Program-made: the position numbers and the translations under genes
The notes under the pieces: model-generated
Databases searched by the model: none
What the model saw: the letters and a program-made list of their open reading frames with translations, nothing else
What the model was told of the DNA's origin: nothing
Part shown: one piece after another, positions 43,795 to 62,200 of the stretch
How the letters are laid out: the number at the start of each line of letters is the position of its first letter
Numbering within the stretch: the stretch's first letter is position 1
Assembly: GCA_965222605.1 (NCBI GenBank)
Contig: OZ244960.1
Coordinates: 864,001 to 928,000 of the forward strand
DNA from: Candidatus Latescibacterota bacterium
GTDB taxonomy: Bacteria; Latescibacterota; UBA2968
Direction of reading: 5' to 3'
DNA length: 64,000 bases

Positions 43795-44652
43795 GTGTCA
43801 CAATCTAAATATATCACACAGTTAAAAGCTGAGGGATGGTGTCTAATTGATGGCGTGATCCCCGAAGATCGGATTGATTATCTTCGAGAACACGTCATGA
43901 AGGGACACGAAAAAGCCTTATGCGATTACGAGATATCGGGTGGATCGCTTGGGTTTCAAGCAGATGCAAATGGAAATCCGAGCACCAATTTAGTGGCTTA
44001 TGTGCCCGATCTCACACCGTATTTCGGCGATAAGCGCGTGGTAGGTGTCGCAAAAGCCATGCTGGACCCGCATGTGCGCATCGCACAAACAGAATTTAAG
44101 ACGCGACAATCGGGCGATCGAAATATTCATCACCGCGGTTTTCATTCCGATTGGCCGCACGATATTCTGGACCGGGATTGTGCAGGCGCGATTCTCATGC
44201 CATTTCCCAATGTAACAATGGGGCTAACAGCATTGTGGATGTTATCGCCATTTTCCGCTGAAAATGGGGGCACATGGGTCGTGCCGCGCAGTCATTTAGA
44301 TATTCGCAACCCGCGCAGTCATATGGACCCCCGCAATTCTCCCGAAATGCACGATGGCATTGATCCCACTGCGCCAATTCCCGGCGAAATACAACTCCAG
44401 GGACCAGCGGGCAGTGTACTCCTGCTGGACAGCCGAATATGGCATTCGACAGCGAGCAATCCGAGCACCAAACCACGCGTGACAATGCTAACGCGCTATT
44501 CGCCGTGGTGGATCAGTCTGGAATTTGGCGGGCGGAATCGGTCAATCGTGCCGCGAGACGTATTTGAACAATTTCCAGATACAGTAAAAGATTTATACCG
44601 CCATCGGGCCGAAGAGGCGGAAAACCCTATTCGCAAACATTCTGCGCCCTGA
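43795..44652 (+). CDS. PhyH-family dioxygenase
   Basis: FHSDWPH, ENGGTWVVPRSH and DSRIWHSTASN. Confidence 0.92.
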   Translation: MSQSKYITQLKAEGWCLIDGVIPEDRIDYLREHVMKGHEKALCDYEISGGSLGFQADANGNPSTNLVAYVPDLTPYFGDKRVVGVAKAMLDPHVRIAQTEFKTRQSGDRNIHHRGFHSDWPHDILDRDCAGAILMPFPNVTMGLTALWMLSPFSAENGGTWVVPRSHLDIRNPRSHMDPRNSPEMHDGIDPTAPIPGEIQLQGPAGSVLLLDSRIWHSTASNPSTKPRVTMLTRYSPWWISLEFGGRNRSIVPRDVFEQFPDTVKDLYRHRAEEAENPIRKHSAP

Positions 44653-44763
44653 ATGTCGGCAGAAAATCGACTTTATATTTTTTAAGCCCTGCTTGACTAA
44701 GCAGGGCGTTTATTTTTGGATTCTATTCCAGATTTCAGGTTACAATTTCTTACATGACATCCA

Positions 44764-44850
44764 ATATCGCAAAAAAATGGACACTGGGACAAATTTTGAA
44801 CTTCAAGACAAACTTACGAGGTTGACATCTAAGGGTAAATAGGGTTATTC
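44764..44850 (+). promoter_or_regulatory. Duplicated upstream module X, copy 1 (copy 2 at 47529-47613)
   Basis: 36 bp identical (CAAAAAAATGGACACTGGGACAAATTTTGAACTTCA), then TTGACA-N18-TATTC in both copies. Confidence 0.8.
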
Positions 44851-44974
44851 ATTAGTAAGGCCTATTTTTAAGAGCGATATATCGTCTATAAAGACGCGGT
44901 TTTCAAACCGTGCGCAGGACACGCATCCATTGAGATTGCTCTCAACATAACCATTTTTCAAAGGAGTAGCAGAC

Positions 44975-45631
44975 ATGAAACACCTGCGTAAATCTATCGT
45001 TATAAGCGTCATAGCTCTGGTAGCTATGAACTTCCCCATCCCCATTTTCGGTCAGACCACAATCGCCATTCAGGGCGGCATGAGCCGGGCGACATTGGGC
45101 GGAAGTGATGTAGAAAATGCGGACGCGCGCATCGGCATCACGCTCGGTGCTTCTGCAACCATCCCAATACAAGACAAATTCAGCCTTCGACTCGGTGGCA
45201 ACTATGTGCAGAAGGGGGCCAAGTTCGGAGGCAACATCGAGGGTTTTGGTGGGGGATCGGGAAATACTGATGTTGATTACATCGAGCTTTCGGGCCTGGG
45301 CGTCTTCAAGCTCGCGCCGTCTGAAAGTCAGGCTTCAGTATATATGCTCGTTGGACCATCGGTGGCATTCAAGACCAAGTGTGAAGGCTCCTTCTCAGGC
45401 TCCTTCTTCTCAGAGGACATCAACCTATCAGAGGACTGCGGCGAGGACACCAACAGCTTTGACTTCGGTATTACTGGAGGGATTGGTGCAGGGATGGCGA
45501 TCTCCGAACAGATGACGTTCTCGGTAGATTTGCTGTACACCCTGGGGATCCTGTCGCTTGACGATGCAGATGACGTTAAGAATCGGGCCCTTATCATTCG
45601 GGCTGGTGTCGGCTTTCCTATCGGAAAATAG
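44975..45631 (+). CDS. PorT/OmpA-like small outer-membrane beta-barrel
   Basis: Signal peptide; YVQKG, GPSVAF, FDFGITGGIG and YTLG; terminal AGVGFPI. Confidence 0.85.
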   Translation: MKHLRKSIVISVIALVAMNFPIPIFGQTTIAIQGGMSRATLGGSDVENADARIGITLGASATIPIQDKFSLRLGGNYVQKGAKFGGNIEGFGGGSGNTDVDYIELSGLGVFKLAPSESQASVYMLVGPSVAFKTKCEGSFSGSFFSEDINLSEDCGEDTNSFDFGITGGIGAGMAISEQMTFSVDLLYTLGILSLDDADDVKNRALIIRAGVGFPIGK

Positions 45632-45647
45632 TGATAGGCAAAAATTT

Positions 45648-45690
45648 AAAAAAGGCGATCCATTACGCAATGGGATTTGGATCGCCTTTT
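45648..45690 (+). terminator. Terminator after the beta-barrel gene
   Basis: AAAAAGGCGATCCA...TGGATCGCCTTTTT. Confidence 0.85.
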
Positions 45691-46082
45691 TGTATATATC
45701 AATCACTCATGCCTGCCACAATTCACCGTGGACATCGGCACAAGGAAACTTCAAATCGGACACTTTATTGATAAATTCTCGACCCGTAAAAATCATAAAT
45801 TTCTATAATACAATTTATAGAATTGTCACTTTTTTGAAACTTTATAAGGGACAAAGCGTGAGAAACGGAACAGAGGCAGATAGCAAAGTTGGCTGACAAG
45901 CCTTATTTTGCCTTTCCTACCATATCAGCAGCATCAACGTTTTTATTGTATCCTTATCGGGAGGGAATTGCCACGATTAATAGTGTGAACGGTTTTCTTT
46001 AAGCTGTTGACAAACAAATATTTATGCAACTTGGGATTCGGAATCTGTAAGTTATCAAAACAAATCCTTACAAATCCAAATT

Positions 46083-46235
46083 GCAAAACTATTCACACGG
46101 TTGATCATGGCATTTTCTTTCAAATTCTTTTCCTTCGCGCTCGGCTTTACCAGTCTGCTGAGCCGGATATCCTCGCTTTACCTGCGGTCGCTTTACCCCC
46201 AGACCAGCAGCTTTTCCCCTTCTCTGGATCTGGAT
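46083..46235 (+). pseudogene. Degenerate 5' remnant of a paralog of the giant surface protein
   Basis: The leader GCAAAACTA..ACACGGTT.ATCATG and the reading KFFSFALGFTSLLS...RSLYPQTS...PSLD match 56260-56430 (KFLSFILGITSLLS...RSLSPQTS...PSLD). Confidence 0.8.
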
Positions 46236-46683
46236 AGTTCTGAAGGCGATCAAGTAGTATCCTCTCTCGATGTACCTCCCAATCACGCTGTTTTCCTTCA
46301 GATTTTCCGCACAGATATTCCAGGCCTGTACTGCATAGACCTGTCCCGTGATGATTCTACACGGGCCAAGTCCATGCGGTATGCCAGCGGTATTTCTGCG
46401 TGTATTGAATCTGATGTTACACATGTCTCGCGTTTCTGTCGTGCAGAGGGGGCGCAATGAATCACCTGCGCCCGACAGCCATTAGGCTGACAAAGTATCT
46501 TTTATCTGTGCGTTGACAGAAGACGAACTGCTATACTGACGTTGCGCTCCGCTCAGCACGCGCAGCATAACGTCAGTAATGACAGACACCTGATATTGTG
46601 CCTGTGCGTAACGTCAATAACTTCGAGTGTCATCTGATGCGGGCGATGTATTGCCCAATGCCCGGTCCCTTCAGGTCTTATTT

Positions 46684-46735
46684 TTGCAATCATTTGCATA
46701 CTGTTGTACTATGTATAAGGGCATCTGAAGCATTC
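46684..46735 (+). promoter_or_regulatory. Duplicated promoter module Y, copy 1 (copy 2 at 47692-47744)
   Basis: TTGCAA-N17-TACTAT in both copies, with shared TCATTTGCATA and GCATC.GAAGCATTC. Confidence 0.8.
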
Positions 46736-46769
46736 CGTTCACAGCGAAATTCAACAATGTGGGGGATGA

Positions 46770-47498
46770 ATGGATAAGCAGAAAATTCTGATTGTAGATC
46801 ATGAGCCATGTGTAATATCAGCGCTCGTAGAATTCTTGAAAGACGAACCGTATGAAATATTCACTGCGGAAAATGGACTAAAAAGCCTTGAAATTTTGAG
46901 AACAGAGAATATTGACCTCGCTGTGGTTGAGGCACATTTAGAGGATATGGATGGGATAACATTGTTGGAGCATGTGCGGGCAGAGAAAATTCAAACAGCC
47001 ATGCTGATCATGACGAGTTTGGGGTCCGCAGAATTGGGCGAACAACTGATCAAGGCCGGTGCTGTGAGTGTATTTGATAAACCAATAGAGAGAGATGTTT
47101 TTTTAACCAGAGTCAAAAGATACATCTCTCCACAAAATAGTTGGGAGAACCGTCTGGAATCATTTCTCGAAGATAATTACAGCAATCCAGAGCTGAAATT
47201 TGAAGACGTCATGCACTATTTCAATTTCTCTAAGACCTATGGATATGCATTGTTCAAGCAATATTTTGGAGAGTCATTCAGGATTTGCCTGCGCAATTTA
47301 CGCCTGACAAAGGCTGAAGAAGCATTGAAGAACACATCGGATTCCATTTCAGAAATTGCTCAGCGGTGTGGTTTTGCATACTTATCGACGTTTAGCAGAG
47401 TTTTCAAAGCGAAGTATGGAAATAACCCGACCACATATCGAAAATTCCATTTCAGAAATTGCCTATCAGTGTGGATTTATGCCCTCATCGACTTTTAG
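46770..47498 (+). CDS. Atypical response regulator: receiver domain + AraC HTH
   Basis: KILIVDHE...DLAVVEAHLEDMDG...FDKP receiver; RLTKAEEALKNTSDSISEIAQRCGFAYLSTFSRVFK AraC signature. Confidence 0.9.
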   Translation: MDKQKILIVDHEPCVISALVEFLKDEPYEIFTAENGLKSLEILRTENIDLAVVEAHLEDMDGITLLEHVRAEKIQTAMLIMTSLGSAELGEQLIKAGAVSVFDKPIERDVFLTRVKRYISPQNSWENRLESFLEDNYSNPELKFEDVMHYFNFSKTYGYALFKQYFGESFRICLRNLRLTKAEEALKNTSDSISEIAQRCGFAYLSTFSRVFKAKYGNNPTTYRKFHFRNCLSVWIYALIDF

Positions 47499-47899
47499 CA
47501 AGATTTTCAATGAAAATAATCCGGCCACATATCAAAAAAATGGACACTGGGACAAATTTTGAACTTCAGAACAAATTTGCGGGGTTGACATCGTAAGGGC
47601 AATAGTACTATTCTAAGAACTGACCATTAATAGGACTTACTTTTTTTCTAAGATGCAAAATATACCAGCAGGTCTTATGAGTAATTTTTCTTTGCAATCA
47701 TTTGCATAATGTCGTACTATATACTAAGAGCATCAGAAGCATTCTATATTTTTCCGTGTAATTTCCATACGAGAAGGTATTAAACTGGAGGAGGCGTAAC
47801 ATGTAAAAAATTAGTTGCCATCAAGTTCGACGTTCGACGACCAGTAACTCATCGATACTTTTTCTTATCACACAGGCAAATTCTAAAGGGAGGTTCCAA

Positions 47900-48394
47900 A
47901 TGCGTAACACAGGAATAGTATTCATGCTGGCTATCATTGTCGGCCTCGGCACTTTTACTGGCTGTGCAACGAGCCAGGCCAAGTCCCAATTGCAGATACG
48001 TGAGTTCCAAACTCGTAGTTTCGAGACCAAAGACGTCAAGGCGGTCCTCAAGGCTCTAATGAATATCTTACAAGACGAGGGATACGTGACGAAGCAGGCT
48101 AACTTAGAATTAGGGTTTATTAATGCCACAAAGGAGTATGAGGAGGGCCTGAAAGTCTCGGAACTTTTATTCATGCGTCGCGGAGAATGGTCGCGCAATT
48201 CTATCATCGACGCGACATTTAATGTCTCACAGTACGGTGAAACATGTCGTGTTCGAGCTAACTTCCAGACAAAAACCCTGAATCGTGAAGGTGGTGTTAA
48301 CAAGGTCAAACCGATCGACTCTGAGCAGTTCTACATTGACTTCTTCGCCAAAGTGAGTAAGGGGATTTTCATCAATGTTGACCAGGGGCTTTGA
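47900..48394 (+). CDS. Array lipoprotein, type A
   Basis: Lipobox FTGC; LQIREFQTRSFE...ILQDEGY...LGFINA...FYIDFFAKVSKGIF. Confidence 0.85.
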   Translation: MRNTGIVFMLAIIVGLGTFTGCATSQAKSQLQIREFQTRSFETKDVKAVLKALMNILQDEGYVTKQANLELGFINATKEYEEGLKVSELLFMRRGEWSRNSIIDATFNVSQYGETCRVRANFQTKTLNREGGVNKVKPIDSEQFYIDFFAKVSKGIFINVDQGL

Positions 48395-48536
48395 TCCAAT
48401 TTGGGCCAAGGATACAAATTGATCGATAACACATCAGATGCGATCTTTTTGCCAGGGCCAGCCTGCATCAGGCAATATCGTCTAAATTGTATAGGTACTG
48501 ATCTTACTGGCCATCATCAACAGAAGGAGGCGTAAC

Positions 48537-48977
48537 ATGAAAAAATTACTGATCGCAGTAATGGCTGTGGTATTCCTGTCGGGTTGCATGATGACCCCGC
48601 AGCACCGAAGAGCTGTGCGGGATGATTCTGGCGACCGGATGACTGTTGGAAAGGTTCAAAAAGAAATAAGGGTTGGTATGAGTGGTGCCGAAGTTGCCCA
48701 GGTTCTCGGATCGCCAAATATCGTTTCAACAGATGAAGAACGGCGTGAAGTATGGATATATGACAAAATTTCGACGGAAGAAGCATACTCAACCAGTCAG
48801 GGCGGTGTTGCTTCTCTCATCCTTGTAGGCCTGACCGATGTTTTGCTTGGCGGAAGTGGCGGACTGTCGGGTTCATCCGGAGCCAGTTCAACATCTCAGA
48901 GAACCCTCACTGTCATAATAAAATTTGACGAAAATAAACAGGTGAGAGACTTCGCGTATCACACATCGCGGTTCTGA
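48537..48977 (+). CDS. SmpA/OmlA (BamE-like) domain lipoprotein
   Basis: Lipobox LSGC; IRVGMSGAEVAQVLGSPN...EVWIYD...LTVIIKFDENKQV. Confidence 0.85.
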   Translation: MKKLLIAVMAVVFLSGCMMTPQHRRAVRDDSGDRMTVGKVQKEIRVGMSGAEVAQVLGSPNIVSTDEERREVWIYDKISTEEAYSTSQGGVASLILVGLTDVLLGGSGGLSGSSGASSTSQRTLTVIIKFDENKQVRDFAYHTSRF

Positions 48978-49035
48978 GGAAGACACACCAGATATAGTAG
49001 TGGAAGTTGTGAGCCGGCTTCAAGGGTGGTCACAG

Positions 49036-49590
49036 ATGATTTATAAAAAAAATCTTCTATTATCACTACTTGCCATAATGGTATTAGTTTTGACGAGTTG
49101 CGGAAGTAGTATTCCCAAAGGTGCTTTTAAGCTAACACCAGAATTATTGCAAAAGCGGGTTCTAAAAACGAGAAAATACGAAGGCATTTCAGAAGTTGAT
49201 ATTTTATCGGCATCTGCTGGCGTGCTTCAAGATTTGGGATTCAATATTGATGAGAGTGAATCAAAACTCGGACTTATCGTTGGCTCAAAGGTAAGAGATG
49301 CGACTGAAATAGGGCAGGAGGTTTGGTGGTGGACTAAGGCGTTGCTTCTCAGGTGGACGGCGTTTACTGATGAGACTGATGACTATCAAAAGTTCAGGGC
49401 GTCTGTTGTTATACGTCCAATATCAGAAGATAACGATAAAACACACTATGTTAGTGTGACATTCCAGCGGATTGTTTGGGATACTGCTGACAAAATTTCG
49501 AAACAAGAGACCCTGAATGAGCCTGAAATATATCAAGAGTTCTTTGATCGTCTTTCAAAATCAGTCTTTCTGGAAGGGCAAAAAATATGA
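49036..49590 (+). CDS. Array lipoprotein, type B1
   Basis: Lipobox LTSC; TRKYEGISE...LQDLGFNIDESE..LGLIVGSK...YQEFFDRLSKSVFLEGQKI. Confidence 0.85.
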   Translation: MIYKKNLLLSLLAIMVLVLTSCGSSIPKGAFKLTPELLQKRVLKTRKYEGISEVDILSASAGVLQDLGFNIDESESKLGLIVGSKVRDATEIGQEVWWWTKALLLRWTAFTDETDDYQKFRASVVIRPISEDNDKTHYVSVTFQRIVWDTADKISKQETLNEPEIYQEFFDRLSKSVFLEGQKI

Positions 49591-50009
49591 AAATCTCCAG
49601 GATACTGACAGCCTCAATTGCCATATTAATTGGGTTATCCGGATGTGGAACATCAAAAAATCATTTGCTGAAAATAGATGAAAGCCAGGTCAAGTTGCGA
49701 AGCATGCAAACCCGTGCATTCGACACCACAGAAAAGAATAAGATGCTTAGAACCGTAATAACCACAATCCAAGATTTCGACTATGTCCTGGATAAAGCAG
49801 ATGCAACGCTTGGAATGATTAGTGCCACAAAACTCGACGAACATCAATACCGAATAACGATTACTGTTCGACCGAGGGGCGAAACCCAATTGTTGGTACG
49901 TGCAAACGTACAATACAAACAAAAGGCTGTTAAAGATCCAATAATATATCAAAATTTCTTCACCTCTTTGGCAAAATCGATATTTCTGACCGCTCACGAG
50001 GTTGATTAA
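49587..50009 (+). CDS. Array lipoprotein, type C1
   Basis: ATGA overlap with B1; lipobox LSGC; LRSMQTRAFD...FLTAHEVD. Confidence 0.88.
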   Translation: MKISRILTASIAILIGLSGCGTSKNHLLKIDESQVKLRSMQTRAFDTTEKNKMLRTVITTIQDFDYVLDKADATLGMISATKLDEHQYRITITVRPRGETQLLVRANVQYKQKAVKDPIIYQNFFTSLAKSIFLTAHEVD

Positions 50010-50010
50010 A

Positions 50011-50154
50011 CGTAATTATTTAGGTTCTTGTGGTCGCGTAGGAGGGAAATCCTTTTCCCGACCTTGATCGCGGCAGGGATGCCGCTCCGACAGCATCCTT
50101 TTGTGATTTTTGTGCATTTTGTGGCTAATCATCCAAATGACCTAAATAGTTACG
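50011..50154. mobile_element. 144-bp MITE-like element with 15-bp TIRs and a 6-bp target duplication, carrying a GTAG-type REP doublet
   Basis: CGTAATTATTTAGGT / ACCTAAATAGTTACG (14/15 match); ATTAAA on both sides; the empty site GTTGATTAAACGA is seen after the four sister genes. Confidence 0.88.
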
Positions 50155-50298
50155 ATTAAACGATCATCAAAGAGCCGGAGTAGTTTCGCATTCAACCTGT
50201 CTGATGGCAGATCCCAACGTATCACGCATCGCGGTTCTCAGGTGGCACGCCGGTAAAGGAAGAGCCGCTCTCCGCACAGCTTTGCGAGGAGATTAAGT

Positions 50299-50913
50299 AT
50301 GATCATCCAGGGGAAAAGACATCCATTCGTATGGCTTACGATAATGGCACTGATTGTGGCAGGCTGTGGGAGTAGTTTGCCCAAACATGTCTTAAGACTA
50401 ACACCAGATACATTACAGAACAGGTCCTTACAAACAAGAAAATACGAAGGCATTTCAGAAGCTGATCTTTTATCTGCATCTACTGGTGTGATTCAAGATT
50501 TGGGATTCATCATTGATGAGAGCGAGATAAATCTCGGACTTATCGTTGGCTCAAAAGACAGAGATGCACCTCCTGATGCAGGACAGCGGATAGGGCAAGT
50601 GCTTGGGGGAATTTTTATGTTCACTCTCGCTATAGCCGCTGCTGCTATAGACGAGGAAGACATTGCTGAAGATCTTATAGATAACATGGTTTTGTCTGTT
50701 GACGACTATCAAAAGTTATGGGCGTCTATTGTTATCCGTCCAGCATCGGAAGATGACGATAAAATACACTATGTCAGGGTGACATTTCAGCGGATTGTTT
50801 GGGATACCGAAGGCGAAATAGACAGAATGCAAAGCCTAAGTGAGCCTGAAATGTATCAAAAGTTCTTCGATCTTCTTTCAAAATCAGTCTTTCTGGAAGG
50901 GGAAAAAATATGA
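50299..50913 (+). CDS. Array lipoprotein, type B2
   Basis: Lipobox VAGC; paralog of B1 with a different central insert; ends SVFLEGEKI. Confidence 0.88.
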   Translation: MIIQGKRHPFVWLTIMALIVAGCGSSLPKHVLRLTPDTLQNRSLQTRKYEGISEADLLSASTGVIQDLGFIIDESEINLGLIVGSKDRDAPPDAGQRIGQVLGGIFMFTLAIAAAAIDEEDIAEDLIDNMVLSVDDYQKLWASIVIRPASEDDDKIHYVRVTFQRIVWDTEGEIDRMQSLSEPEMYQKFFDLLSKSVFLEGEKI

Positions 50914-51377
50914 ACCTCTCCGGGATATTGATAGTCGCTATTGCCACATTAATCGCGCTTTCTGGATGCACATCATCATCTGGAAGCACATCATCACAAG
51001 AGCAATTGCTGAAGATGGATGAAAGCCAGGTTAAGCTGCGAAGCATGCAAACCCGTGCATTCGATACCACAGATAAAGATAAAATGCTCAGCACTGTAAT
51101 ATCCACACTTCAGGATTTAGACTATATCGTGAATGAAGCAAATGAAGTGATCGGAACGGTTAGTGCCCGAACAACTCACATTAGATATAAATACCTGAAA
51201 AAGAAAAAATATCCACTGCTAATAACGGTTACTGTTCGTCCAAGGGGCGAAACCCAATTGTTGGTACGTGCGAACGCTCAGTACAACCAAAAAGCTGTTG
51301 AAAATCCATTAGTATATCAAAATTTCTTCACTGTTTTGGCAAAATCAATTTTTCTCACTGCTCACGAGGTTGATTAA
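50910..51377 (+). CDS. Array lipoprotein, type C2
   Basis: ATGA overlap with B2; LSGC; ends FLTAHEVD. Confidence 0.88.
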   Translation: MNLSGILIVAIATLIALSGCTSSSGSTSSQEQLLKMDESQVKLRSMQTRAFDTTDKDKMLSTVISTLQDLDYIVNEANEVIGTVSARTTHIRYKYLKKKKYPLLITVTVRPRGETQLLVRANAQYNQKAVENPLVYQNFFTVLAKSIFLTAHEVD

Positions 51378-51977
51378 ACGACCATTGTCTCAGCCACAAT
51401 ACCGATAAAAATAAAAACATCTAAAGGGACATAAAATATGGCAATCTCCAGGATATTGACGGCTGTAATTGCCACCTCCATATTAATCGGGTTGCCCGGA
51501 TGTGGAACACTACAAAAGCGAATGATGGAATTGGAGACAAGTCGTCAACTCAAGCTGCGAAGCATGCAAACCCGTGCATTCGATACCACAGATAAAAATA
51601 AAATGCTTAGAACTGTAATAGCCACACTTCAGGATTTAGGCTATATCGTGAATGAAGCAAATGAAGTGATCGGAACGGTTAGTGCTCACACAACCAGTAA
51701 ATATATAATCTTGGAAAAGAAAAAATATCCACTGCTAATAACGGTTACTGTTCGTCCAAGGGGCGAAACCCAATTGTTGGTACGTGCGAACGCTCGGTAC
51801 AAACAACAAGAAGCTATTGAAAATCCATTATTTTATCAAAATTTCTTCACTGTTTTGGCAAAATCAATTTTTCTCACTGCTCACGAGGTTGATTAAACGA
51901 CCATTGTCTCAGCCACAATACCGATAAAAATAAAAACATCTAAAGGGACATAAAATATGGCAATCTCCAGGATATTG
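51315..51977 (+). repeat. 144-bp identical direct repeats at 519-bp period (51315-51458 and 51834-51977)
   Basis: Each copy spans a gene 3' end, the intergenic spacer and the next gene start; no differences were seen by eye. Confidence 0.9.
51438..51896 (+). CDS. Array lipoprotein, type C3
   Basis: LPGC; core nearly identical to C2; ends FLTAHEVD. Confidence 0.88.
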   Translation: MAISRILTAVIATSILIGLPGCGTLQKRMMELETSRQLKLRSMQTRAFDTTDKNKMLRTVIATLQDLGYIVNEANEVIGTVSAHTTSKYIILEKKKYPLLITVTVRPRGETQLLVRANARYKQQEAIENPLFYQNFFTVLAKSIFLTAHEVD

Positions 51978-52365
51978 GCGGCTGTAATCGCCACCTCCAT
52001 ATTAATCGGGCTGTCCGGATGCGCAACACCAAAAAAGCAGGAGACAAGTCAATTTGCGAAGCATGCAAACCCGTGCATTCGACTCTACAGACGAAAAAAA
52101 GACGCTTAGAAGTGTAATATCCACACTTCAAGATTTCGACTTTCTCATAGATGAAGTAAATAAAGTACTTGGAGTGGTTAGTGCCACAAGAAGGACCGAT
52201 TGGTTGCAAATAACAGTTACTGTTCGCCCAAAAGGTGAAACACAAGTATTTGTGCGTGCGAATATGGAATACAGGCAAAAGGGGGTTGAAGATCCAGCAG
52301 TATATCAAAAATTCTTCACGTATTTGGAAAAATCGATGTTTCTGACCGCTCACGAGGTTGATTAA
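51957..52365 (+). pseudogene. Array lipoprotein, type C4, frameshifted near 52050
   Basis: MAISRILAAVIATSILIGLSGCATPKKQETSQ is out of frame with LRSMQTRAFD...FLTAHEVD; the span of 409 nt is not a multiple of 3. Confidence 0.85.
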
Positions 52366-52420
52366 ACGACCATTGTGTCAGCTTCATCGACGCAATATCC
52401 CAGACCAGAGGAATAGAAAT

Positions 52421-52843
52421 ATGAATATCTCCAGGATACTGATGACAACAATTGCCGCATCCATTTTAATTGGGTTGTCCGGAGGTGTGTCATTTTCACA
52501 AAAAATAGAACTACATGAAAGTCAATTAGAAATTCGAAGCATGCAAACCCGTGCATTCGATACCACAGATGAGAATAAGACGCTTAGAGCTATAATAGCC
52601 ACACTTCAAGATTTCGGCTTTGTCATAAATAAAGCAGATGAAGCACTTGGAACGATTACTGCCAGAAGAATCGACAAATATTCATTGCGAATAACAGTTA
52701 CTGTTCGTACAAGGGGTGAAACGCAAGTGTTAGTGCGTATGAATGCGTACTATGGTCGGCCTGTTAGGAAACCAATAATATATCAAAATTTCTTCACATC
52801 TCTGGCAAAGTCGATGTTTTTGACCGCTCACGAGGTTGATTAA
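52421..52843 (+). CDS. Array protein, type C5 (lipobox Cys replaced by Gly)
   Basis: MNISRILMTTIAASILIGLSGGVSFSQK; IRSMQTRAFD...FLTAHEVD. Confidence 0.87.
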   Translation: MNISRILMTTIAASILIGLSGGVSFSQKIELHESQLEIRSMQTRAFDTTDENKTLRAIIATLQDFGFVINKADEALGTITARRIDKYSLRITVTVRTRGETQVLVRMNAYYGRPVRKPIIYQNFFTSLAKSMFLTAHEVD

Positions 52844-52890
52844 ACGACCATTCAAGCCGTATCTCCTTTCCGATATTGAGCAATAAACCC

Positions 52891-55800
52891 ATGCAAAAAT
52901 TCATTCTTTATTCCACCTTTTTTATTCTCGTCCTCTTGCTATTCGTGCGAGATAGTCGCGCTCAAAACGCCCTTACAGGGCATACCAATGCCGTCGAATC
53001 TGTGGCATTTTCTCAGGATGGCGCGCTACTCGCTTCTGGGTCAAGGGATGGCACGATCAAGTTGTGGAACGCGACGACCAGACAAAATACCGACACCTTT
53101 GACGGACACACGGATGTGGTCAGTGCTGTGGCATTTGCCCCAGATGGGACACTACTCGCTTCTGGATCATCAGTAGATGGCACAGTCAAGTTGTGGAACG
53201 TGCTGGCAGGCACAAATATCGCCATCCTTGAGGAACATACAGATGTGGTCAGTGCTGTGGCATTTACCTCAGATGGGATATTGCTCGCTTCCGGATCCGT
53301 GAATGGCGCGATCCTCCTGTGGGATGTGGCGACAAAGACCGCCACCAACCTTAAGGGACAGCCGGTCAGTTCTATAGCGTTTTCACAAGATGGGACGCTA
53401 CTCGCTTCCGGGTCAGCGAATGGCACAATCCTGCTGTGGGATGTCGCGACGGGCACAAATATCGCCACCTTTGACGAGCATACGGATGATGTCTCATCTG
53501 TAGCGTTTTCACAAGATGGAACGCTACTCGCTTCCGGGTCTGATGATAACACGGTCAAGCTGTGGGACGTGCAGGCGGGCACAAATATCACCACCCTTGA
53601 GGAACATACTGATGCCGTCAGTTCTGTGGCGTTTTCACAAGATGGAACGGTACTATCCTCCGGATCAGTGGATGGCATGGTTACACTCTGGAACGTGGGA
53701 AAAAGAAAACAGATCACCACCCTTGAGGAACATAGGGATGCGATCCGCTCTGTGGCGTTTTCCTCTGATGGAACGCTACTCGCTTCCGGGTCATTAGATG
53801 GCAGGATCTTGCTTTGGAACGTATCAGAATGGACACGGCCTCGCCCCGATATACTGAGAAAAATCTCCGGCGACAACCAGCAAGGCACACCCAGAGCAAT
53901 ATTGGCAAATCCCCTGATCGTTGAAGTACGAGATCAAAACGATAATCCCTTATCAGATGTGCAAGTCACCTTCAGAGTTACCGCCGGCGCGGGAAAGCTC
54001 AGCGGACGATTCACGATTGAGTACGCAACAACCGATGCCAATGGCCACGCAGAGAGGTCACTTACCCTCGGTCCCAATCCGGGAACAAACACCGTTGAGG
54101 TATCTATCGTCGGGCGCGACCCGGAGACGTTTAATGCAATAAGCATTGGAACGCCTGCGGTGCCGAGCCTGGACGGTGATTATCCAACATGGCATGTACC
54201 CGACGGTGCAATCGCACGCCTGGGAAAAGGACCTATTGGTACGGGGGACAAAGCGGTCGCATTCTCGCCAAACGGTCAAAGTCTCGCTGTGGCAAGTGGC
54301 ATTGGCGTATGGCTTTACGATGTGGCGACCTCCCGTGAACTCATGCTACTACCCTCTGCGAGTGCAGTCAGTTCTGTGGCGTTTTCAAGAGATGGGATGC
54401 AACTGGCTTCAGGGTCAGTAGATGGCACGGTTGCGCTGTGGGACATCGCGACGGGACAAAATACCGACACATTTGAAGCGCGCAGGGGCAATATCTCTCC
54501 CGTAGCATTTTCACAATATGAGACGCTGACAGCTTCCAGATCAGTCGAATCGGTGGCATTTTCACCTGATGGAACACTGATAGCTTCTGGGCGAAAGGAT
54601 GGCACAGTTGTGCTGTGGGATATTGCGACTGGGAACGCCACCACCCTTGAGGGGCATACAGATTGGGTCAGTTCTGTGGCGTTTTCTCGCCAGGGGGTAC
54701 TGGCTTCCGGGTCTTTGGATAGAACGATCAAACTGTGGGACATCGCGACGGGACAAAATACCGACACCTTTGAGGCGCACAGAGGCAATGTCTTGTCCGT
54801 GGCATTTTCACCCGATGGAACAATACTCGCTTCCGGATCAGGGGATGGCACGGTCGTGCTGTGGAACATTGCGACTGAAAATGCCATCATCCTTGAAGGG
54901 CATACAGATGATGTCAGTTCTGTGTCATTTTCACCCGATGGAACAATACTATCTTCCGGATCTGATGATAATACGATCAAACTGTGGAACGTGCAGGCGC
55001 GCAAAAATACCGCCACCTTTGAAAAACATACAGATAACGTCAGTTCTGTATCCCTGTCTCAGGATGAGGATGGGACGCTACTACTCGCTTCTGGTTCTTT
55101 GGATGGCGCAATCCTCCTGTGGGACGCAGCGACTGGAAACGCCTCCACCCTTGAAGGGCATACACAGGCAGTCAGTTCTGTATCCTTTTCACCTAATGAG
55201 GATGAGACGCTACTCGCTTCCGGGTCTTTAGATGGCACGATTCTACTGTGGGACACAGCGAGAAGAGAGCAGATTACCACCCTTGATGGATATTCGGGAG
55301 ATGTCTTTTCTGTGTCGTTTTCCCCAGATGGGAGGCTGATAGCTTCCGGGTCTTTGGATGGCACGATCCTCCTGTGGGACATTGCGACTGGAAACACCAC
55401 CACACTTGAGGGACAGGCGGTCAGTTCTGTCGCGTTCTCTCCCGATGAGGATGAAACGCTACTCGCTTCTGGATCAGTAGATGGCACGATCCTCCTGTGG
55501 GACATTGCGACTGGAAACACCACCACTCTTAAGGGACAGGCAGTCAGTTCTATCGCCTTCTCTCCCGATGGGACAATACTCGCTTCCGGATCTCTGGATG
55601 GCACGATCCTCCTGTGGGACATTGCGACTGAAAACACCACCTCACTTGAGGGACATACGCAGGTGGTCAGTTCTATGGCATTTTCGCAGGATGAGGATGG
55701 ACTACTCGCTTCCGGGTCAGTAGATGGCACGATTCTGCTATGGGATGTAGCCACGCGCACCACTACCGCTACCCTTAAGGGACAGGCAGTCAGTTCTGTG

Positions 55801-56205
55801 TCCTTTTCACCCGATGGGACGCTACTATCTTCCGGGTCTTTGGATGGCACGGTCCTCCTGTGGGACATTGCGACGGAAAACGCCACCATTCTTGAGGGAC
55901 ATAAGGACAACGTCTTTTCCGTGGCGTTTTCCCCAGATGGAATGCTGCTATCTTCCGGATCAGGGGATGGCACAATTCTGTTGTGGGATATGTCGCCGTA
56001 TATCACACCTTCAACCCCTACGCCAGCCCCTACACCTGACTTTAATGGCGATGGAACTGTTGGTATTCCCGACTTTTTGCTATTTGTAGAGCACTTCGGG
56101 GTAAGTCAAGGGGCTGCGGGGTATGATGCACGATACGATCTGGATGGCGACGGCACAATTGGGGTGGGTGATTTTCTGATCTTTATCGATGCCTTCGGCA
56201 AATAA
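52891..56205 (+). CDS. Secreted WD40 protein: 7 WD40 + Big_1-like Ig domain + 14 WD40 + PT linker + dockerin-like double EF-hand
   Basis: Signal peptide MQKFILYSTFF...SRA; 21 GH...SVAFSPDG.LLASGS.DGTI.LWD repeats; ISGDNQQG...VEVRDQ; DFNGDGTVGIPDFL and DLDGDGTIGVGDFL. Confidence 0.93.
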   Translation: MQKFILYSTFFILVLLLFVRDSRAQNALTGHTNAVESVAFSQDGALLASGSRDGTIKLWNATTRQNTDTFDGHTDVVSAVAFAPDGTLLASGSSVDGTVKLWNVLAGTNIAILEEHTDVVSAVAFTSDGILLASGSVNGAILLWDVATKTATNLKGQPVSSIAFSQDGTLLASGSANGTILLWDVATGTNIATFDEHTDDVSSVAFSQDGTLLASGSDDNTVKLWDVQAGTNITTLEEHTDAVSSVAFSQDGTVLSSGSVDGMVTLWNVGKRKQITTLEEHRDAIRSVAFSSDGTLLASGSLDGRILLWNVSEWTRPRPDILRKISGDNQQGTPRAILANPLIVEVRDQNDNPLSDVQVTFRVTAGAGKLSGRFTIEYATTDANGHAERSLTLGPNPGTNTVEVSIVGRDPETFNAISIGTPAVPSLDGDYPTWHVPDGAIARLGKGPIGTGDKAVAFSPNGQSLAVASGIGVWLYDVATSRELMLLPSASAVSSVAFSRDGMQLASGSVDGTVALWDIATGQNTDTFEARRGNISPVAFSQYETLTASRSVESVAFSPDGTLIASGRKDGTVVLWDIATGNATTLEGHTDWVSSVAFSRQGVLASGSLDRTIKLWDIATGQNTDTFEAHRGNVLSVAFSPDGTILASGSGDGTVVLWNIATENAIILEGHTDDVSSVSFSPDGTILSSGSDDNTIKLWNVQARKNTATFEKHTDNVSSVSLSQDEDGTLLLASGSLDGAILLWDAATGNASTLEGHTQAVSSVSFSPNEDETLLASGSLDGTILLWDTARREQITTLDGYSGDVFSVSFSPDGRLIASGSLDGTILLWDIATGNTTTLEGQAVSSVAFSPDEDETLLASGSVDGTILLWDIATGNTTTLKGQAVSSIAFSPDGTILASGSLDGTILLWDIATENTTSLEGHTQVVSSMAFSQDEDGLLASGSVDGTILLWDVATRTTTATLKGQAVSSVSFSPDGTLLSSGSLDGTVLLWDIATENATILEGHKDNVFSVAFSPDGMLLSSGSGDGTILLWDMSPYITPSTPTPAPTPDFNGDGTVGIPDFLLFVEHFGVSQGAAGYDARYDLDGDGTIGVGDFLIFIDAFGK

Positions 56206-56283
56206 GGATCCTCGAATTAACAACTGCTCTAATCGCGGACCAAATGTTAGCCCTGAGTGGCAAAACTATCTACACGGTTAATC

Positions 56284-59200
56284 ATGAAACCTCCCGTTAA
56301 ATTTCTCTCCTTCATACTTGGCATCACCAGTCTGCTGAGCCTGATATTCTTGATTTACCCGCGATCACTATCCCCACAGACCAGCAACTTAGCCTTAGAG
56401 ACCGCTGCGCCACCTTCTCTCGACTTTGACGGCAGTGGGATTGTGGATTTTCCCGACTTTTTGATGTTTATAAGCGCGTTTGGATCCGAGGAGGGCCAGA
56501 ATAAGTACAATGCAAAATACGATCTCAATAGCGATGGCAAAATTGCCTTTGAAGACTTTCTAATTTTAACCGACAACTTTGGAAAAAACATTGTAGCACA
56601 AAAGTCTCCAACGTCATCGGATCAGGACGCGAGCACGACTCAAAGCATGGCGGAGAACACGGGGACCACCGGTGCGACATTGCCTGTTACCGCGTTGGAT
56701 GAATCGGTTGTCGCATCAACACCACAGCCATTGACAGAAGCGACATTGGATGGCAGTGTGGTCAAACTGACCCTGAGCAGTGCTGCTTACGAGTCGTTTA
56801 TCTTCGACATTCGAGATAACGTGAAGGTATCGGGTATTGCTGGGGTTACCTTTGACAGTTTCTTCGATGTAGATCGCGTGAGCGATACAGTGGTAACCGT
56901 TGAGCTTACATTCAGTGGGAATATGACCACCGATGGCACGCTGATTTTCACCGTGGGAGCAGGTGCCATAGCCAACTACAGTGGCTCTGCACTCACTGCG
57001 ACATTGTCCGTTACCGCGCTGGAGGAATCGGTGGTCGCGTCAACACCACAGCCATTGACAGAAGCGACATTGAATGGCAGTGTGGTCACCCTGACCCTGA
57101 CAGGACGTTCTTATGAGCGGTCCGTGTTCGACATTAGTGATGCGGTGAAAGTATCAGGCATTTCCGGGGTTACCTTTGACGGTTTCTTCGATATAGATCG
57201 CGAGAGCGATACAGAGGTAACCGTTGAGCTTACATTCAGTGGGAATATGACCACCAATGGCACACTGACCTTCACGGTAGAGGCAGCTGCCATAGCGGGC
57301 TACAATGGTCCCGCACTCACTGCGACATTGCCCGTTACCGCTGGCCCTGGTAATGGAAGCCAACCACCACAACCACCGCCACCGGGCGGGGGCACGCCCA
57401 CTGGAAGTCCCGATCTAATTGTCGAATCGCCTACAGTCAGCGATAGTAGTCCGGGTCCAGAAGCTTACTTCACACTAAGTGCGACTGTTCGCAATCAGGG
57501 CGGCAGTCGGTCTGACTTTACGACATTGCGCTATTATCTATCAACCGATGAGACTATCACGACAGGTGATACGGAAGTAGATACGGACTTCGTGAGCCGC
57601 CTTGACGCTTCTGAAACCAGTGATGAGTCTGCTCGTTTGACAGCACCGTCGAGTGAGGGCACATATTACTACGGTGCCTGTGTCGAGTCTGTGTCTGGCG
57701 AATCCGACACAGGTAACAACTGCTCCGATGCAGTGCGTGTCACTGTTACTGGTTCTGACTTAGTCGTTGAATCGCCTTCGGTCGATAATAACACCCCGGG
57801 ACCGGGGGAGTCTTTCTACCTGAGTGCGACTGTTCGCAATCAGGGCGGCAGTCGGTCTGACTTTACGACATTGCGCTATTATCTGTCAACCGATGAGACT
57901 ATCACGACAGGTGATACGGAAGTAGATACGGACTTCGTGAGCCGCCTTGACGCTTCTGAAACCAGCGATGAGTCTGCTCGTTTGACAGCACCGTCGAGTG
58001 AGGGCACATATTACTACGGTGCCTGTGTCGAGTCTGTGTCTGGCGAATCCGACACAGGTAACAACTGCTCCGGTGCTGTCGCCATCACTATTACTGGTTC
58101 TGACTTAGTCGTTGAAGCACCCACAGTCAGCGAAGACATCCTGGGGCCAGAGGAATACTTCAGGCTAAGCACCACTGTTCGCAATCAGGGTGGCAGTCGA
58201 TCTGCCTCTACGACATTGCACTATTATCTGTCAACCGATGAGACCATTACGACAGGTGATACGGAAATAGAAACCAGCTACGTTAGCTCCCTTGATCCTT
58301 CTGAAACCAGCGATGAGAGGGCTTATTTGGACGCCCCGTTGAGCGAGGGCAAGTATTACTATGGCGCCTGTGTCGAGAGCGTCACTGGAGAGAGTAATAC
58401 GGGTAACAACTGCTCCAGTGCTGTCACTGTCACTGTTAGTGGTTCTGACTTAGTCGTTGAATCGCCTTCGGTCAGTGATAATACCCTTTCGTCAGGGCAA
58501 TCCTTCTACCTGAATGCGACGGTTCGCAATCAGGGTGGCAGTCGATCTGCTTCTACGACATTGCGCTATTATCTGTCAACGAATGAGACGATCAATACGA
58601 GCGATACGGAAGTAGATACGGACTATGTGAGTTTCCTTGACGCTTCTGAAAGTAGTGATGAGTCTGCTCGTTTGGCGGCCCCTTCGGGTGAGGGCACGTA
58701 CTATTACGGTGCCTGTGTCGAGGCAGTCACTGGCGAATCCGACACAGGTAACAACTGCTCCAATGCTGTCGCCGTGACCGTAGCTCGCACGATCAGTACC
58801 AATCAGCCACCGACTTTCAGCGAGGGTTCGAGCACCACGCGCAGCTTGCACGAGAACACGACAGGGACACAGGATATCGGGAACCCGGTGCGTGCGACAG
58901 ATAGCGACCATGACAGGCTGACCTACAGCCTTGAAGGTACGGATATAGGGAGTTTCAGCATTACCTCAACCACCGGTCAGATCAGAACCCTATCGAGTGT
59001 AACGTACGACTATGAGACAAAAAGTAGCTATTCAGTGAGGGTGCGGGTAGATGACAGTCAAGGTGGCAGCGCGATCATTGCTGTGAGGATCACCCTGACC
59101 GATGAGAACGAATCGCCACACAGACCTGCTGCGCCCACAGTGACCGCCTCAACGTTGAATAGCCTGAGTGTGCGTTGGACGGCACCGAATAACACCGGAC

Positions 59201-62200
59201 CTGCGATTAGCGACTACGATGTGCGCTACAAAGCGAACAATGGCAGTTTCACCAATTGGAACCACAGCGGCAGTAGCGCGACCACCACGATCACCGGCTT
59301 GACCGCGAATACCCGTTATGAAGTACAGGTGCGAGCGCGCAACGCCGAAGGGGACAGCCCCTGGTCCCCATCAGTTCATGGGACGACCACAGCCAATCAA
59401 GCACCCACGTTCAGCGAAGGTTCGAGCACCACGCGCAGATTGTACGAAAATACGACAGAGATGCAGAATATCGGAAATCCTGTGACGGCAACCGACAGCG
59501 ACGGAGGCACGTTGACCTATAGCCTTGAAGGCACAGATGCGGGGAGTTTTACTATTGTCTCGGATAGCGGTCAACTCAGGACCCAATCGGGTGTGATGTA
59601 TGACTATGAGACAAAGGACAGCTATTCGGTGACGATGCGAGTCGAGGACGGCAAAGGCGGCAGTGCGACCATTGAGGTAGAGATCACCCTGACCGATGAG
59701 AACGAACCACCGCACAGACCCAATGCGCCAACAGTGACAGTTCCGACATTGAATAGCCTGAGTGTGCGTTGGACAGCACCAGATAATACCGGACCTGTCA
59801 TCAGCGACTACGATGTGCGCTACAAAGCGAGCGGTGGCAATTTCACCAACTGGCCCCATACGGGCACGGGCACAAGCACGACAATCAGGAATTTGACCGC
59901 GAATACGCGTTACGAGGTGCAGGTGCGGGCGATCAATGACGAAGGCACGGGCGATTGGTCGCCATCGGTTAACGGAACAACCACTGCCAATCAGGCACCT
60001 GAGTTCAGTGAGAATTTGCCGACGCGCAACGTTGTCGAGAACACGACAGGGACACAGAATATCGGAAATCCTGTGACGGCAACCGACAGCGACGGAGGTA
60101 CGCTGACCTACGGCCTTGAAGGCTCGGATGCCGGGAGTTTTACTATTGTTTCGACCAGCGGTCAACTCAGGACTCAATCGGGTGTGATGTATGACTATGA
60201 GACAAAGGACAGCTATTCGGTGACGATGCGGGTGGAGGACGGACAAGGCGGCAGTGCGACCATTGAGGTGGAGATCACCCTCACCGATGAGAACGAACCA
60301 CCGGGCAGACCCACCCTGCCCCTGATGACGGCCTCGACATTGAATAGCCTGAGTGTGCGTTGGACAGCACCGGATAACACCGGACCTGTGATTAGCGACT
60401 ACGATGTGCAGTACAGGGAAGCAGGAGGCAATTTCGCCAACTGGCCCCATACGGGCAAGGGTCTGACTACAACGATCGCGGGTCTGACCACAGGTACGAC
60501 CTACGAAGTGCAGGTGCGGGCGATCAATGATGAAGGCACGGGCGACTGGTCGCCATCGGTTAACGGAACAACCACTGCCAATCAGGCACCCACATTCAGC
60601 GGTTCGAGCACCACGCGTAGCGTTGCCGAGAACACGACAGGGACACAGAATATCGGAAATCCTGTGACGGCAACCGACAGCGACGGAGGCACGCTGACCT
60701 ATAGCCTCGAAGGCACGGATGCAGGGAGTTTCAGCATCATCTCAACCACAGGTCAACTCAGGACCCAATCGGGTGTGATGTATGACTATGAGACAAAGGA
60801 CAGCTATTTGGTGACGGTGCGAGCCGAGGACGGTCAAGGCGGCAGTGCAACCATTGAGGTGGAGATCACCCTCACCGATGAGAACGAACCACCGCACAGA
60901 CCCAATGCGCCGACAGTGACAGCCTCAACGTCGAATAGCATGAGTGTGCGTTGGACAGTACCGGATAACACCGGACCTGTGATCAGCGACTACGATGTGC
61001 AGTACAGGGAAGCAGGAGGCAATTTCACCAACTGGTCGCATACTGGCACGGGCACAACCACGACGATCACAGGTCTGACCACGGACACGACCTACGAGGT
61101 GCAGGTGCGGGCGATCAATGACGAAGGCACGGGCGACTGGTCGCCATCGGTTAACGGAACAACCTCTGCCAATCAAGCACCCGCGTTCAATGAGAATTTG
61201 CCGACGCGCAGCATTGCCGAGAACACGACAGGGACACAGAATATCGGGAATCCAGTAACGGCAACCGACAGCGACGGAGGCACGCTGACCTACAGCCTCG
61301 AAGGCACGGATGCCGGGAGTTTCAGCATCATCTCGGATAGCGGTCAACTCAGGACCCAATCGGGTGTGATGTATGACTATGAGACAAAGGACAGCTATTT
61401 GGTGACGGTGCGAGTCGAGGACGGTCAAGGTGGCAGTGCGACCATTGAGGTGGAGATCACCCTCACCGATGAGAATGAACCACCGGGCAGACCCAATGCG
61501 CCGACAGTGACAGCCTCAACGTCGAATAGCATGAGTGTGCGTTGGACGGCACCGGATAACACTGGACCTGTGATCAGCGACTACGATGTGCGCTACAAAG
61601 CGAGTAGTGGCAATTTCACCAACTGGCCCCATACGGGCACGGGCACAAGCACGACGATCACGGGTCTGACCACGGACACGACCTACGAGGTGCAGGTGCG
61701 GGCGATCAATGATGAAGGCACGGGCGACTGGTCGCCATCGGTTAACGGAACAACCACCGCCAATCAGGCACCTGAGTTCAGTGAGAATTTGCCGACGCGC
61801 AGCATTGCCGAGAACACGGCGGCGGGACAGGACATCGGGAGTCCTGTGATCGCGACGGACAGCGACGGAGGCACGCTGACCTATAGCCTCGAAGGCAGGG
61901 ATGCCAGAGCATTCACCATCGTCTCGGATAGCGGTCAACTCAGGACCCAATCGGGTGTGATGTATGACTATGAGACAAAGGACAGCTATTTGGTGACGGT
62001 GCGAGTCGAGGACGGTCAAGGTGGCAGTGCGACCATTGAGGTGGAGATCACCCTCACCGATGAGAACGAACCACCGGGCAGACCCAACGCGCCAACAGTG
62101 ACAGCCTCAACGTCGAATAGTTTGAGTGTGCGTTGGACAGCACCGGATAACACTGGACCTGTGATTACTGACTACGATGTGCGCTACAAAGCGAGCAGTG

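Follow-up and report, generated by a model that had tools for sequence, protein, structure and literature searches.

Ring-building lipoproteins such as CsgG and SlyB carry glycine-rich or inserted segments that enter the outer membrane within the oligomer, and KA1 domains bind anionic lipid head groups. BamC, which occurs only in beta- and gamma-proteobacteria, possesses two domains of the helix-grip type (PMC3359395). Flpp3 is described elsewhere as unique to Francisella, and a cavity in it is reported to have been observed by nuclear magnetic resonance (NMR) and to be absent from the X-ray free-electron laser (XFEL) structure. Here, we analyzed a stretch of 64,000 nucleotides from a Candidatus Latescibacterota bacterium (contig OZ244960.1, positions 864,001 to 928,000; hereafter the window), in which nine small genes lie in tandem at 47900-52843 on the forward strand in the order A, BamE/SmpA-like, B1, C1, B2, C2, C3, C4 and C5. 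This locus is an expanded version of a widespread cassette that encodes a divergent BamE-like lipoprotein together with "long" and "short" lipoproteins of a predicted helix-grip fold; literature searches found no paper on the cassette. A sequence-only reading of the window had proposed one hypervariable insert at the same scaffold position in every paralog. That position, termed site 1 here, is the family's main insertion site, and it marks old, stable subtypes and not a hypervariable site, since its loop versions are conserved in other bacteria.

The eight proteins other than the BamE-like one constitute a single family, with 25-36% identity to A and 14 invariant columns in their alignment. 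Pairwise identity reaches 60-76% among C1-C5 and 61% between B1 and B2, and is 24-36% between classes. A profile built from the eight paralogs retrieved exactly eight matches from the 6.34-Mb genome, all inside the cluster, and these eight copies are the most among the 31 genomes searched. The location of length differences was determined in an alignment of 128 sequences, comprising the eight paralogs and 120 of the 150 best representatives (125-215 amino acids), with 98 core columns. Nine inter-column segments vary within the domain. Of the length variance inside the domain, 89.4% falls at site 1, after C1 residue 84, where 0-51 residues are added; site 2, after residue 112 and before the C-terminal helix, accounts for 10.0% and holds either 3 or 13 residues, the 13-residue version being carried by A, B1 and B2; the remaining segments together contribute less than 1%. 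Long forms add a further 3-4 residues in the turn after site 1. In structural terms, site 1 is the connection between beta strands 3 and 4, right after the strand with the motif G-x-(I/V)-x-(A/G) (residues 80-88 in the B1 model).

Because the length variance is so concentrated, the position named in the sequence-only reading is real, and the even spread of variation that would have spoken against it is not seen in the multiple alignment; its singularity needs amending, given the second site. All nine peptides quoted there occur in the translations directly behind the conserved strand, and the loops extend from 48134 in A to 52687 in C5 by hand count, in line with the proposed range of 48130-52700. 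A loop does stand at the same position in all eight paralogs, although one of them (C4) is frameshifted and another (C5) lacks the lipobox Cys, which is present in A, the BamE-like protein, B1, C1, B2, C2 and C3 and, ahead of the frameshift, in C4. The B1/C1 and B2/C2 gene pairs each share a four-base overlap. The genes and their inserts, all on the forward strand, are as follows.

47900..48394 (+): paralog A, lipoprotein of 164 amino acids; open reading frame (ORF), family match E 3e-47
48134-48208 and 48272-48310 (+): site-1 insert (25 amino acids) and site-2 insert (13 amino acids) of A, hand-counted coordinates
48537..48977 (+): BamE/SmpA-like lipoprotein of 146 amino acids; Pfam BamE match at residues 42-77
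48801-48896 (+): Gly-rich hydrophobic insert of 32 amino acids within the BamE-like domain
49036..49590 (+): paralog B1, long form, 184 amino acids from ATG; ORF open from GTG at 49000
49291-49395 and 49471-49509 (+): Trp-rich site-1 insert and site-2 insert of B1
49587..50009 (+): paralog C1, short form, 140 amino acids; six-residue site-1 turn at 49833-49850
50299..50913 (+): paralog B2, long form, 204 amino acids; ORF
50557-50718 and 50794-50832 (+): site-1 insert of B2 (54 amino acids, with a hydrophobic stretch of about 17 residues) and its site-2 insert
50910..51377 (+): paralog C2, short form, 155 amino acids; 15-residue Lys/Tyr-rich site-1 loop at 51174-51218
51438..51896 (+): paralog C3, short form, 152 amino acids, an extra copy of the C2 type; 14-residue site-1 loop at 51693-51734
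51957..52365 (+): paralog C4, short form, broken; five-residue site-1 turn at 52192-52206
52421..52843 (+): paralog C5, short form, 140 amino acids; six-residue site-1 turn at 52670-52687

Family lengths are bimodal. In most short forms (about 140 amino acids), site 1 is a turn of six residues that belongs to a recurring type; the long forms (about 180 amino acids) combine a site-1 insert of about 31 residues, in which a pattern recurs, with the 13-residue insert at site 2. Across B1, B2 and all long forms, the site-1 segment with its predicted hydrophobic helix spans 31-54 residues. Related genomes labelled Latescibacterota and Gemmatimonadota contain these paralog classes as well, and every class has a loop of its own. 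The site-1 segment comprises 25 residues in the A type, 35-37 Trp-rich residues in the B1 type, 43-53 residues in the B2 type, 12-15 Lys/Tyr-rich residues in the C2 type, five in the C4 type, and six in both the C1 and C5 types. In a maximum-likelihood tree of 74 rows, each window paralog falls into a supported clade with orthologs from other genomes: B1 (support 95/98, 8 rows), B2 (100/99, 11 rows), C1 (98/82, 5 rows), C4 (100/100, 10 rows), C5 (100/100, 10 rows) and C2/C3 (99/97, 12 rows). Paralog A groups with a copy in locus L017 (100/99), the sole close ortholog found, which is 83% identical and likewise lies upstream of a BamE-like gene. C3 is 76% identical to C2 and is basal in the C2-type clade on a branch of 0.19.

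Within classes, identity in the loop and in the rest of the domain is 67% and 88% for C1, 71% and 88% for C2, 59% and 81% for C4, 74% and 85% for C5, 57% and 80% for B1, and 55% and 85% for B2. With loop identity of 55-74% against 80-88% elsewhere, the loop evolves about twofold faster than the core and is nevertheless clearly conserved. A hypervariable loop on a constant scaffold would differ between close orthologs, whereas these loops are paralog-specific and retained among orthologs, so that the word hypervariable does not describe them. One clear exception in length was observed, a C4-type gene in locus L009 with a 19-residue loop in place of the 5 residues found elsewhere. The earlier notion of a constant scaffold with a variable element for specificity thus holds in a weaker form, with a single fold and class-specific loops that are stable across genomes and are not diversifying.

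The wider occurrence of the cassette was established by a locus search of contigs at one genome per species, seeded with the BamE-like alignment; seeding with the eight-paralog alignment gave no conserved stretch, and a single protein gave only 3 loci. BamE-like relatives are encoded in 471 of 521 candidate stretches. The 80 loci kept carry labels of Latescibacterota, Gemmatimonadota, Gamma-, Beta- and Alphaproteobacteria, Desulfobacterales, Desulfobulbaceae, Spirochaetaceae, Methylomirabilis and others. Cultured carriers of the cassette include Agitococcus lubricus, Nitrincola tapanii and Chromatium okenii. The gene order BamE-like, long, short is present in 68 of the 80; the other 12 include six cut by contig ends, one with two long genes and two gapped trios, and a BamE-like gene stands without a long or short gene in 3 of the 80. 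The lipobox Cys is invariant in the BamE-like (69/69), long (69/69) and short (68/68) orthologs, and Asp at position +2 occurs in only 2 of the 69 long forms. The three genes show correlated pairwise distances (r 0.76, 0.74 and 0.91), which indicates that they travel together. Fusions of long and short proteins were found in 2 of 150 representatives (P0121 and P0175), with P0121 lacking a second signal peptide. About 20 further proteins of 220-512 amino acids (P0126-P0244) combine an N-terminal short-type domain with a mostly unassigned extension, in which DUF2141 was recognized in one case and Lcl_C in another.

The BamE-like protein scores 24.4 bits against the Pfam BamE model (cut-off 23.2), matching only profile positions 10-45 of 71, and lies far below the cut-offs of the NCBIfam BamE and OsmE models. 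Its orthologs in five genomes reach 19-22 bits on positions 10-43, below the cut-off, and some databases label such orthologs BamE or SmpA/OmlA. A six-frame search for BamE in the window's own genome returned no match. All five cultured proteobacteria that carry the cassette (5/5) have a separate, canonical full-length BamE of 73-98 bits, which argues against the cassette protein being the BamE associated with these organisms' machinery for beta-barrel assembly (BAM).

For the long and short proteins, sequence-based annotation provided little. A family profile gathered 2391 clusters at 50% identity with E<=1e-3. Pfam and NCBIfam gave no family match for the eight paralogs, with nothing near the cut-off in NCBIfam; Pfam returned no significant match for the orthologs (68 short and 69 long), and nothing for 25 of the longer representatives except unrelated C-terminal domains in two. 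RefSeq and UniRef names are hypothetical with two exceptions, a long form that UniRef terms "DUF4410 domain-containing" and an entry named "Lipoprotein". The family and DUF4410 may be distantly related. An ORF adjoining a BamE-like gene upstream on a gammaproteobacterial contig (L063:515-1108) scores 26.6 bits against DUF4410 (cut-off 26). Profile searches against PDB sequences returned only chance-level matches. The ESM Atlas contained unnamed clusters only, with weak leads to DUF3568 and DUF2242; the former annotation is carried by 13% of one cluster with a language-model score of 0.88.

Structure prediction was more informative. An AlphaFold2 model of B1, built on 127 sequences, reached a predicted local distance difference test score (pLDDT) of 92.4 and a predicted template modeling score (pTM) of 0.78, whereas a single-sequence fold of B2 was unusable (pLDDT 35). 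The B1 model comprises a helix (35-44), a strand (45-49), a helix (53-66), two strands (70-75 and 80-88), the insert helix (92-104, pLDDT about 80), two long strands (115-130 and 133-149), a strand in the second insert (154-159) and a C-terminal helix (163-181). The "variable hairpin" proposed earlier is therefore, in the long form, predicted to be a helix between lengthened strands. Foldseek placed chains of the BamC N-domain first (E 3.6e-5 to 2e-4); next came DUF4468, a TBP-like protein and AMPK/KA1 domains. VIA-align, run on 48,161 chains and repeated on Foldseek's top 999, scored Flpp3 highest (10.2 and 9.8, with a root-mean-square deviation of 2.4-2.7 over 92-97 residues), then a Bet v1-like plant protein (9.6), the Chk1 KA1 domain (9.5), the BamC N-domain (9.1) and the BamC C-domain (6.5). 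According to the model, the long/short fold is a minimal helix-grip arrangement that is not nearest to any one family.

Two invariant residues, a Lys and a Gln, border the long-form insert. Among 69 orthologs the insert measures 29-33 residues in 47, 34-37 in 8, at least 40 in 13 and fewer than 20 in one. A 15-residue window with a Kyte-Doolittle mean of at least 1.6 occurs in 54 of the 69 inserts and in 2 of 69 cases in the rest of the mature protein. On the Eisenberg scale, canonical and B2-type inserts have a mean hydrophobicity of 0.73-0.74 with a moment of 0.13, and the Trp-rich B1-type insert has a mean of 0.39 with a moment of 0.18. The glycine-rich hydrophobic insert that the sequence-only reading had noticed in the SmpA protein is genuine: it is 25-41 residues long, consists of 25% Gly, and is kept in 69/69 orthologs, shortened in 3. 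Its hydrophobic core is short, with a Kyte-Doolittle mean of 1.6 sustained over 11 residues in 49/69 and over 19 residues in 7/69. The idea that hydrophobic inserts could enter the membrane is thus chemically reasonable for the long forms and the BamE-like protein only, the C-type loops being 5-15 residues long and polar or basic. Contact of the inserts with the membrane or a partner is plausible from their composition. An obligate pairing of the two hydrophobic inserts was also considered and judged unlikely, as each is lost alone in some loci.

Within the genus, the cassette lies in a conserved frame formed by an outer-membrane beta-barrel gene, an AraC-type response regulator, the cassette itself and a WD40 protein. 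The upstream members in the window are as follows.

44975-45631, upstream of the cassette: outer-membrane beta-barrel protein (OMP_b-brl_2; Pfam)
46770..47498 (+): response regulator with an AraC-type helix-turn-helix (HTH) domain (Pfam Response_reg and HTH_18)

In 12 related loci the response regulator lies upstream of the cassette, as does the barrel gene in 6 loci; the regulator is a conserved neighbor within the genus only, not in other phyla, and is a candidate local regulator. A scan of the locus for promoters and terminators yielded fewer promoter-like sites than shuffled sequence, and an Rfam search of 44000-53500 found no match. Downstream lie two very large WD40-repeat proteins, at 52876-56205 (1109 amino acids) and 56257-63999 (more than 2581 amino acids, running off the window); the former has an Asp/Gly-rich, calcium-binding-like tail and is a conserved cassette neighbor within the genus.

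Nine of 18 same-genus genomes carry the family, with 1-6 matches each, and the other nine lack it. When loci in the syntenic frame were compared (L017, L018, L020-L025, L019, L013 and L027), the number of family genes at this site was 0 (L018), 1 (L017, A only), 2, 4, 6 or, in the window, 8. The site is a hot spot of gene gain and loss. Across loci, 85 flanking ORFs share no family and include transposases, restriction-modification methylases, Shedu, Cas1 and ParB/RepB. The cassette is accessory and mobile. It is probably an envelope module that spreads horizontally and is separate from the housekeeping BAM machinery.

Some copies in the window are damaged. Compared with its orthologs in L009 and L019, C4 lacks five bases near 52044 in a DNA alignment, and this 5-bp deletion separates its signal peptide and lipobox (frame of 51957) from its domain (frame of 52054). 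Three public runs that belong to two other studies, X3, X6 and X4, have these bases in their contigs (depths 73.3/73.3, 56.8/56.8 and 59.7/59.7), and the best-matching run, X1, which may be the source sample, lacks them (0/68.8). The break is therefore real and strain-specific. None of the sequencing runs listed as holding the stretch is an RNA data set. C5 has Gly (GGT) at the position of the lipobox Cys, which its L009 ortholog keeps, and the C4-type copy of L009 lacks the Cys. Strain-level differences also touch the loops: run X6 has a 9-nucleotide in-frame deletion within the C2 loop, and contigs of three runs jump 50605-50696 (90 nucleotides) in the B2 insert, where the intervening letters are marked as not known. 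Contigs of X3 and X4 contain a 9-nucleotide in-frame insertion in B1 at 49406, just past the site-1 insert. In contigs of X1, X3 and X4, position 52397 is linked back to 51424 via 21 other letters, and this joint is the signature of a C3-C4 tandem repeat, or of an altered gene order, within a fraction of the population. In all four runs, the intergenic stretch 50038-50100 between C1 and B2 stands out by its very high summed contig depth and its numerous loose ends and joints; it probably holds a short repeat common to other places or organisms.

Taken together, we favor the reading, with a probability of about 0.55, that the locus is an accessory module built on a three-lipoprotein cassette with stable loop subtypes, in which the site-1 element contacts the membrane, a hydrophobic partner or a ligand. 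The BamE-like, long and short proteins would act jointly on a single face of the membrane. The long and short proteins would together correspond to BamC's pair of helix-grip domains in split form, and the site-1 element would provide the contact surface. The Ala/Gly-rich helix of the long form and the Gly-rich segment of the BamE-like protein might dip into the leaflet that holds the lipid anchors, the Trp-rich B1 insert could sit at the membrane interface, and the Lys/Tyr-rich loop of C2 and C3 may, by analogy with KA1 domains, bind anionic head groups. The extra short paralogs would then be specialized or partly decaying subunits; class-specific loops conserved across genomes are the pattern expected of specialized subunits and not of a diversifying site. 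Several observations weigh against this reading. The top fold matches are tied within one Z unit and belong to very different families, so the fold indicates no function. A 19-residue window at a Kyte-Doolittle value of 1.6 is found in only 34 of 69 long-form inserts, and a hydrophobic helix of 13-15 residues is too short to span a bilayer. The long form of L085 lacks its insert while its BamE-like partner retains one, and the BamE-like inserts of L040, L070 and L073 are shortened beside canonical long forms. Loop identity of 55-74% is equally expected of an ordinary surface loop under mild constraint, and two of the eight window copies, C4 and C5, look damaged.

The main rival for the long-form helix, itself unlikely, holds that it forms the lid or lining of a hydrophobic ligand pocket of the Bet v1/START type, so that the protein would be a periplasmic carrier or sensor of lipids or other hydrophobic molecules with no membrane insertion. 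Bet v1-like and START-type ligand binders are indeed among the tied fold matches, with the insert the minimal domain gains a third helix and longer strands, the insert is uniformly hydrophobic with a low moment, and its predicted confidence of about 80 suggests an element that is packed and not floppy. However, the short forms are always co-encoded yet have no such insert, and the best matches (Flpp3, KA1 and the BamC N-domain) represent the minimal fold without a proven pocket, the cavity of Flpp3 being, in the passages that describe it, a feature of the NMR data and not of the XFEL structure. We consider it rather improbable that the loop differences have no function and reflect relaxed drift of surface loops after duplication in a decaying local expansion. 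The twofold faster loop, the frameshift of C4, the Cys losses of C5 and the L009 C4-type copy, and the range of 0 to 8 copies at one site would fit such decay, but loop length and chemistry are retained per class across genomes labelled as two phyla, across 69 orthologs the flanks of the long-form insert are invariant and its hydrophobic core is conserved, and C4 is intact in the contigs of three other runs.

Still more doubtful is the view that the cassette supplies lineage-specific BAM accessory subunits, equivalents of BamC and BamE that dock on BamA/BamD. It would account for the BamE-like domain and the leading Foldseek matches to BamC N-domain chains, and the long+short fusion mimics the two-domain architecture that the cited part of PMC3359395 gives for the beta/gamma-restricted BamC. 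Set against it are the absence of the family from nine of 18 same-genus genomes, the canonical BamE found besides in 5/5 proteobacteria (in which BamC is expected as beta/gamma members, BamC itself not having been searched for), the lack of bamA or bamD among the 85 flanking ORFs, and the lack, among the families listed, of any match to BamC at E<=1. Least probable to us is the proposal of the sequence-only reading that a hypervariable specificity hairpin varies on a constant scaffold and that its hydrophobic versions insert as an oligomeric ring or pore. The focus of length variation on one position, the hydrophobic long-form and BamE-like inserts, the strain-level indels in the B2 insert and C2 loop, and the precedent of CsgG and SlyB are all compatible with it. 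Nevertheless, each paralog class keeps its loop across genomes and phyla, many Proteobacteria among the matches listed share an almost identical canonical long insert of 31 residues, the C-type loops are short and polar, and the insert is predicted to be helical with only 13-15 hydrophobic residues. A bolder reading, in which the cassette would give rise to a lipoprotein assembly of a new kind, partly embedded in the membrane, whose defined positions are filled by short subunits with class-specific loops, also appears improbable. If it were true, added paralogs would alter the size or specificity of the assembly, which would be a hetero-oligomeric counterpart of the ring-forming lipoproteins.

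The attractive picture of a hypervariable hairpin and pore is thus replaced by a more ordinary and better defined one. New here are the anatomy of the insertion site, the fixed nature of the loop classes and the expansion in the window, which is the largest seen so far. The cassette is present at a minimum of 471 loci in species-representative genomes, and its long and short members belong to a large family of 2391 clusters that has no Pfam or NCBIfam model. Experimental handles are provided by the defined insertion site, its invariant flanks and natural variants, namely insert loss, long+short fusion, frameshift and Cys loss.

Compared with ring-building lipoproteins such as CsgG and SlyB, the model behind the earlier idea, the cassette inserts are short and predicted to be helical, and neither protein turned up as a fold or sequence match in the Pfam, Foldseek or VIA-align results. 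KA1 domains (Chk1, MARK, SAD and the AMPK alpha C-terminus) have a similar fold but are eukaryotic, cytosolic and not lipoproteins, and show no sequence relation. Flpp3 (PDB 6pny and 9nlt) is also similar in fold; it lacks both inserts and is not part of such a cassette, and neither Flpp3 nor DUF3568 gave a Pfam or PDB sequence match to the family. Like BamE (SmpA/OmlA, PF04355) and OsmE, the first gene of the cassette encodes a small lipoprotein, with residues 42-77 matching the BamE profile; it differs from canonical BamE in matching only half of that profile and in its conserved Gly-rich hydrophobic insert of 25-41 residues. With BamC (NlpB), the long and short proteins have the helix-grip fold in common, as judged from the predicted model. 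No match to BamC families was obtained at E<=1 for the window proteins, and none is among the families listed for the 68 short and 69 long orthologs. BamC places two helix-grip domains behind a disordered, BamD-binding N terminus, whereas the cassette proteins have one domain each apart from the rare fusions (2/150), and the long proteins bear two inserts that the BamC domains lack. Unlike BamC, the cassette is found in many phyla and is accessory and mobile, and it brings a BamC-type helix-grip fold with a BamE-like partner to phyla from which BamC is said to be absent. The cassette proteins are an unnamed variant of known lipoprotein folds.

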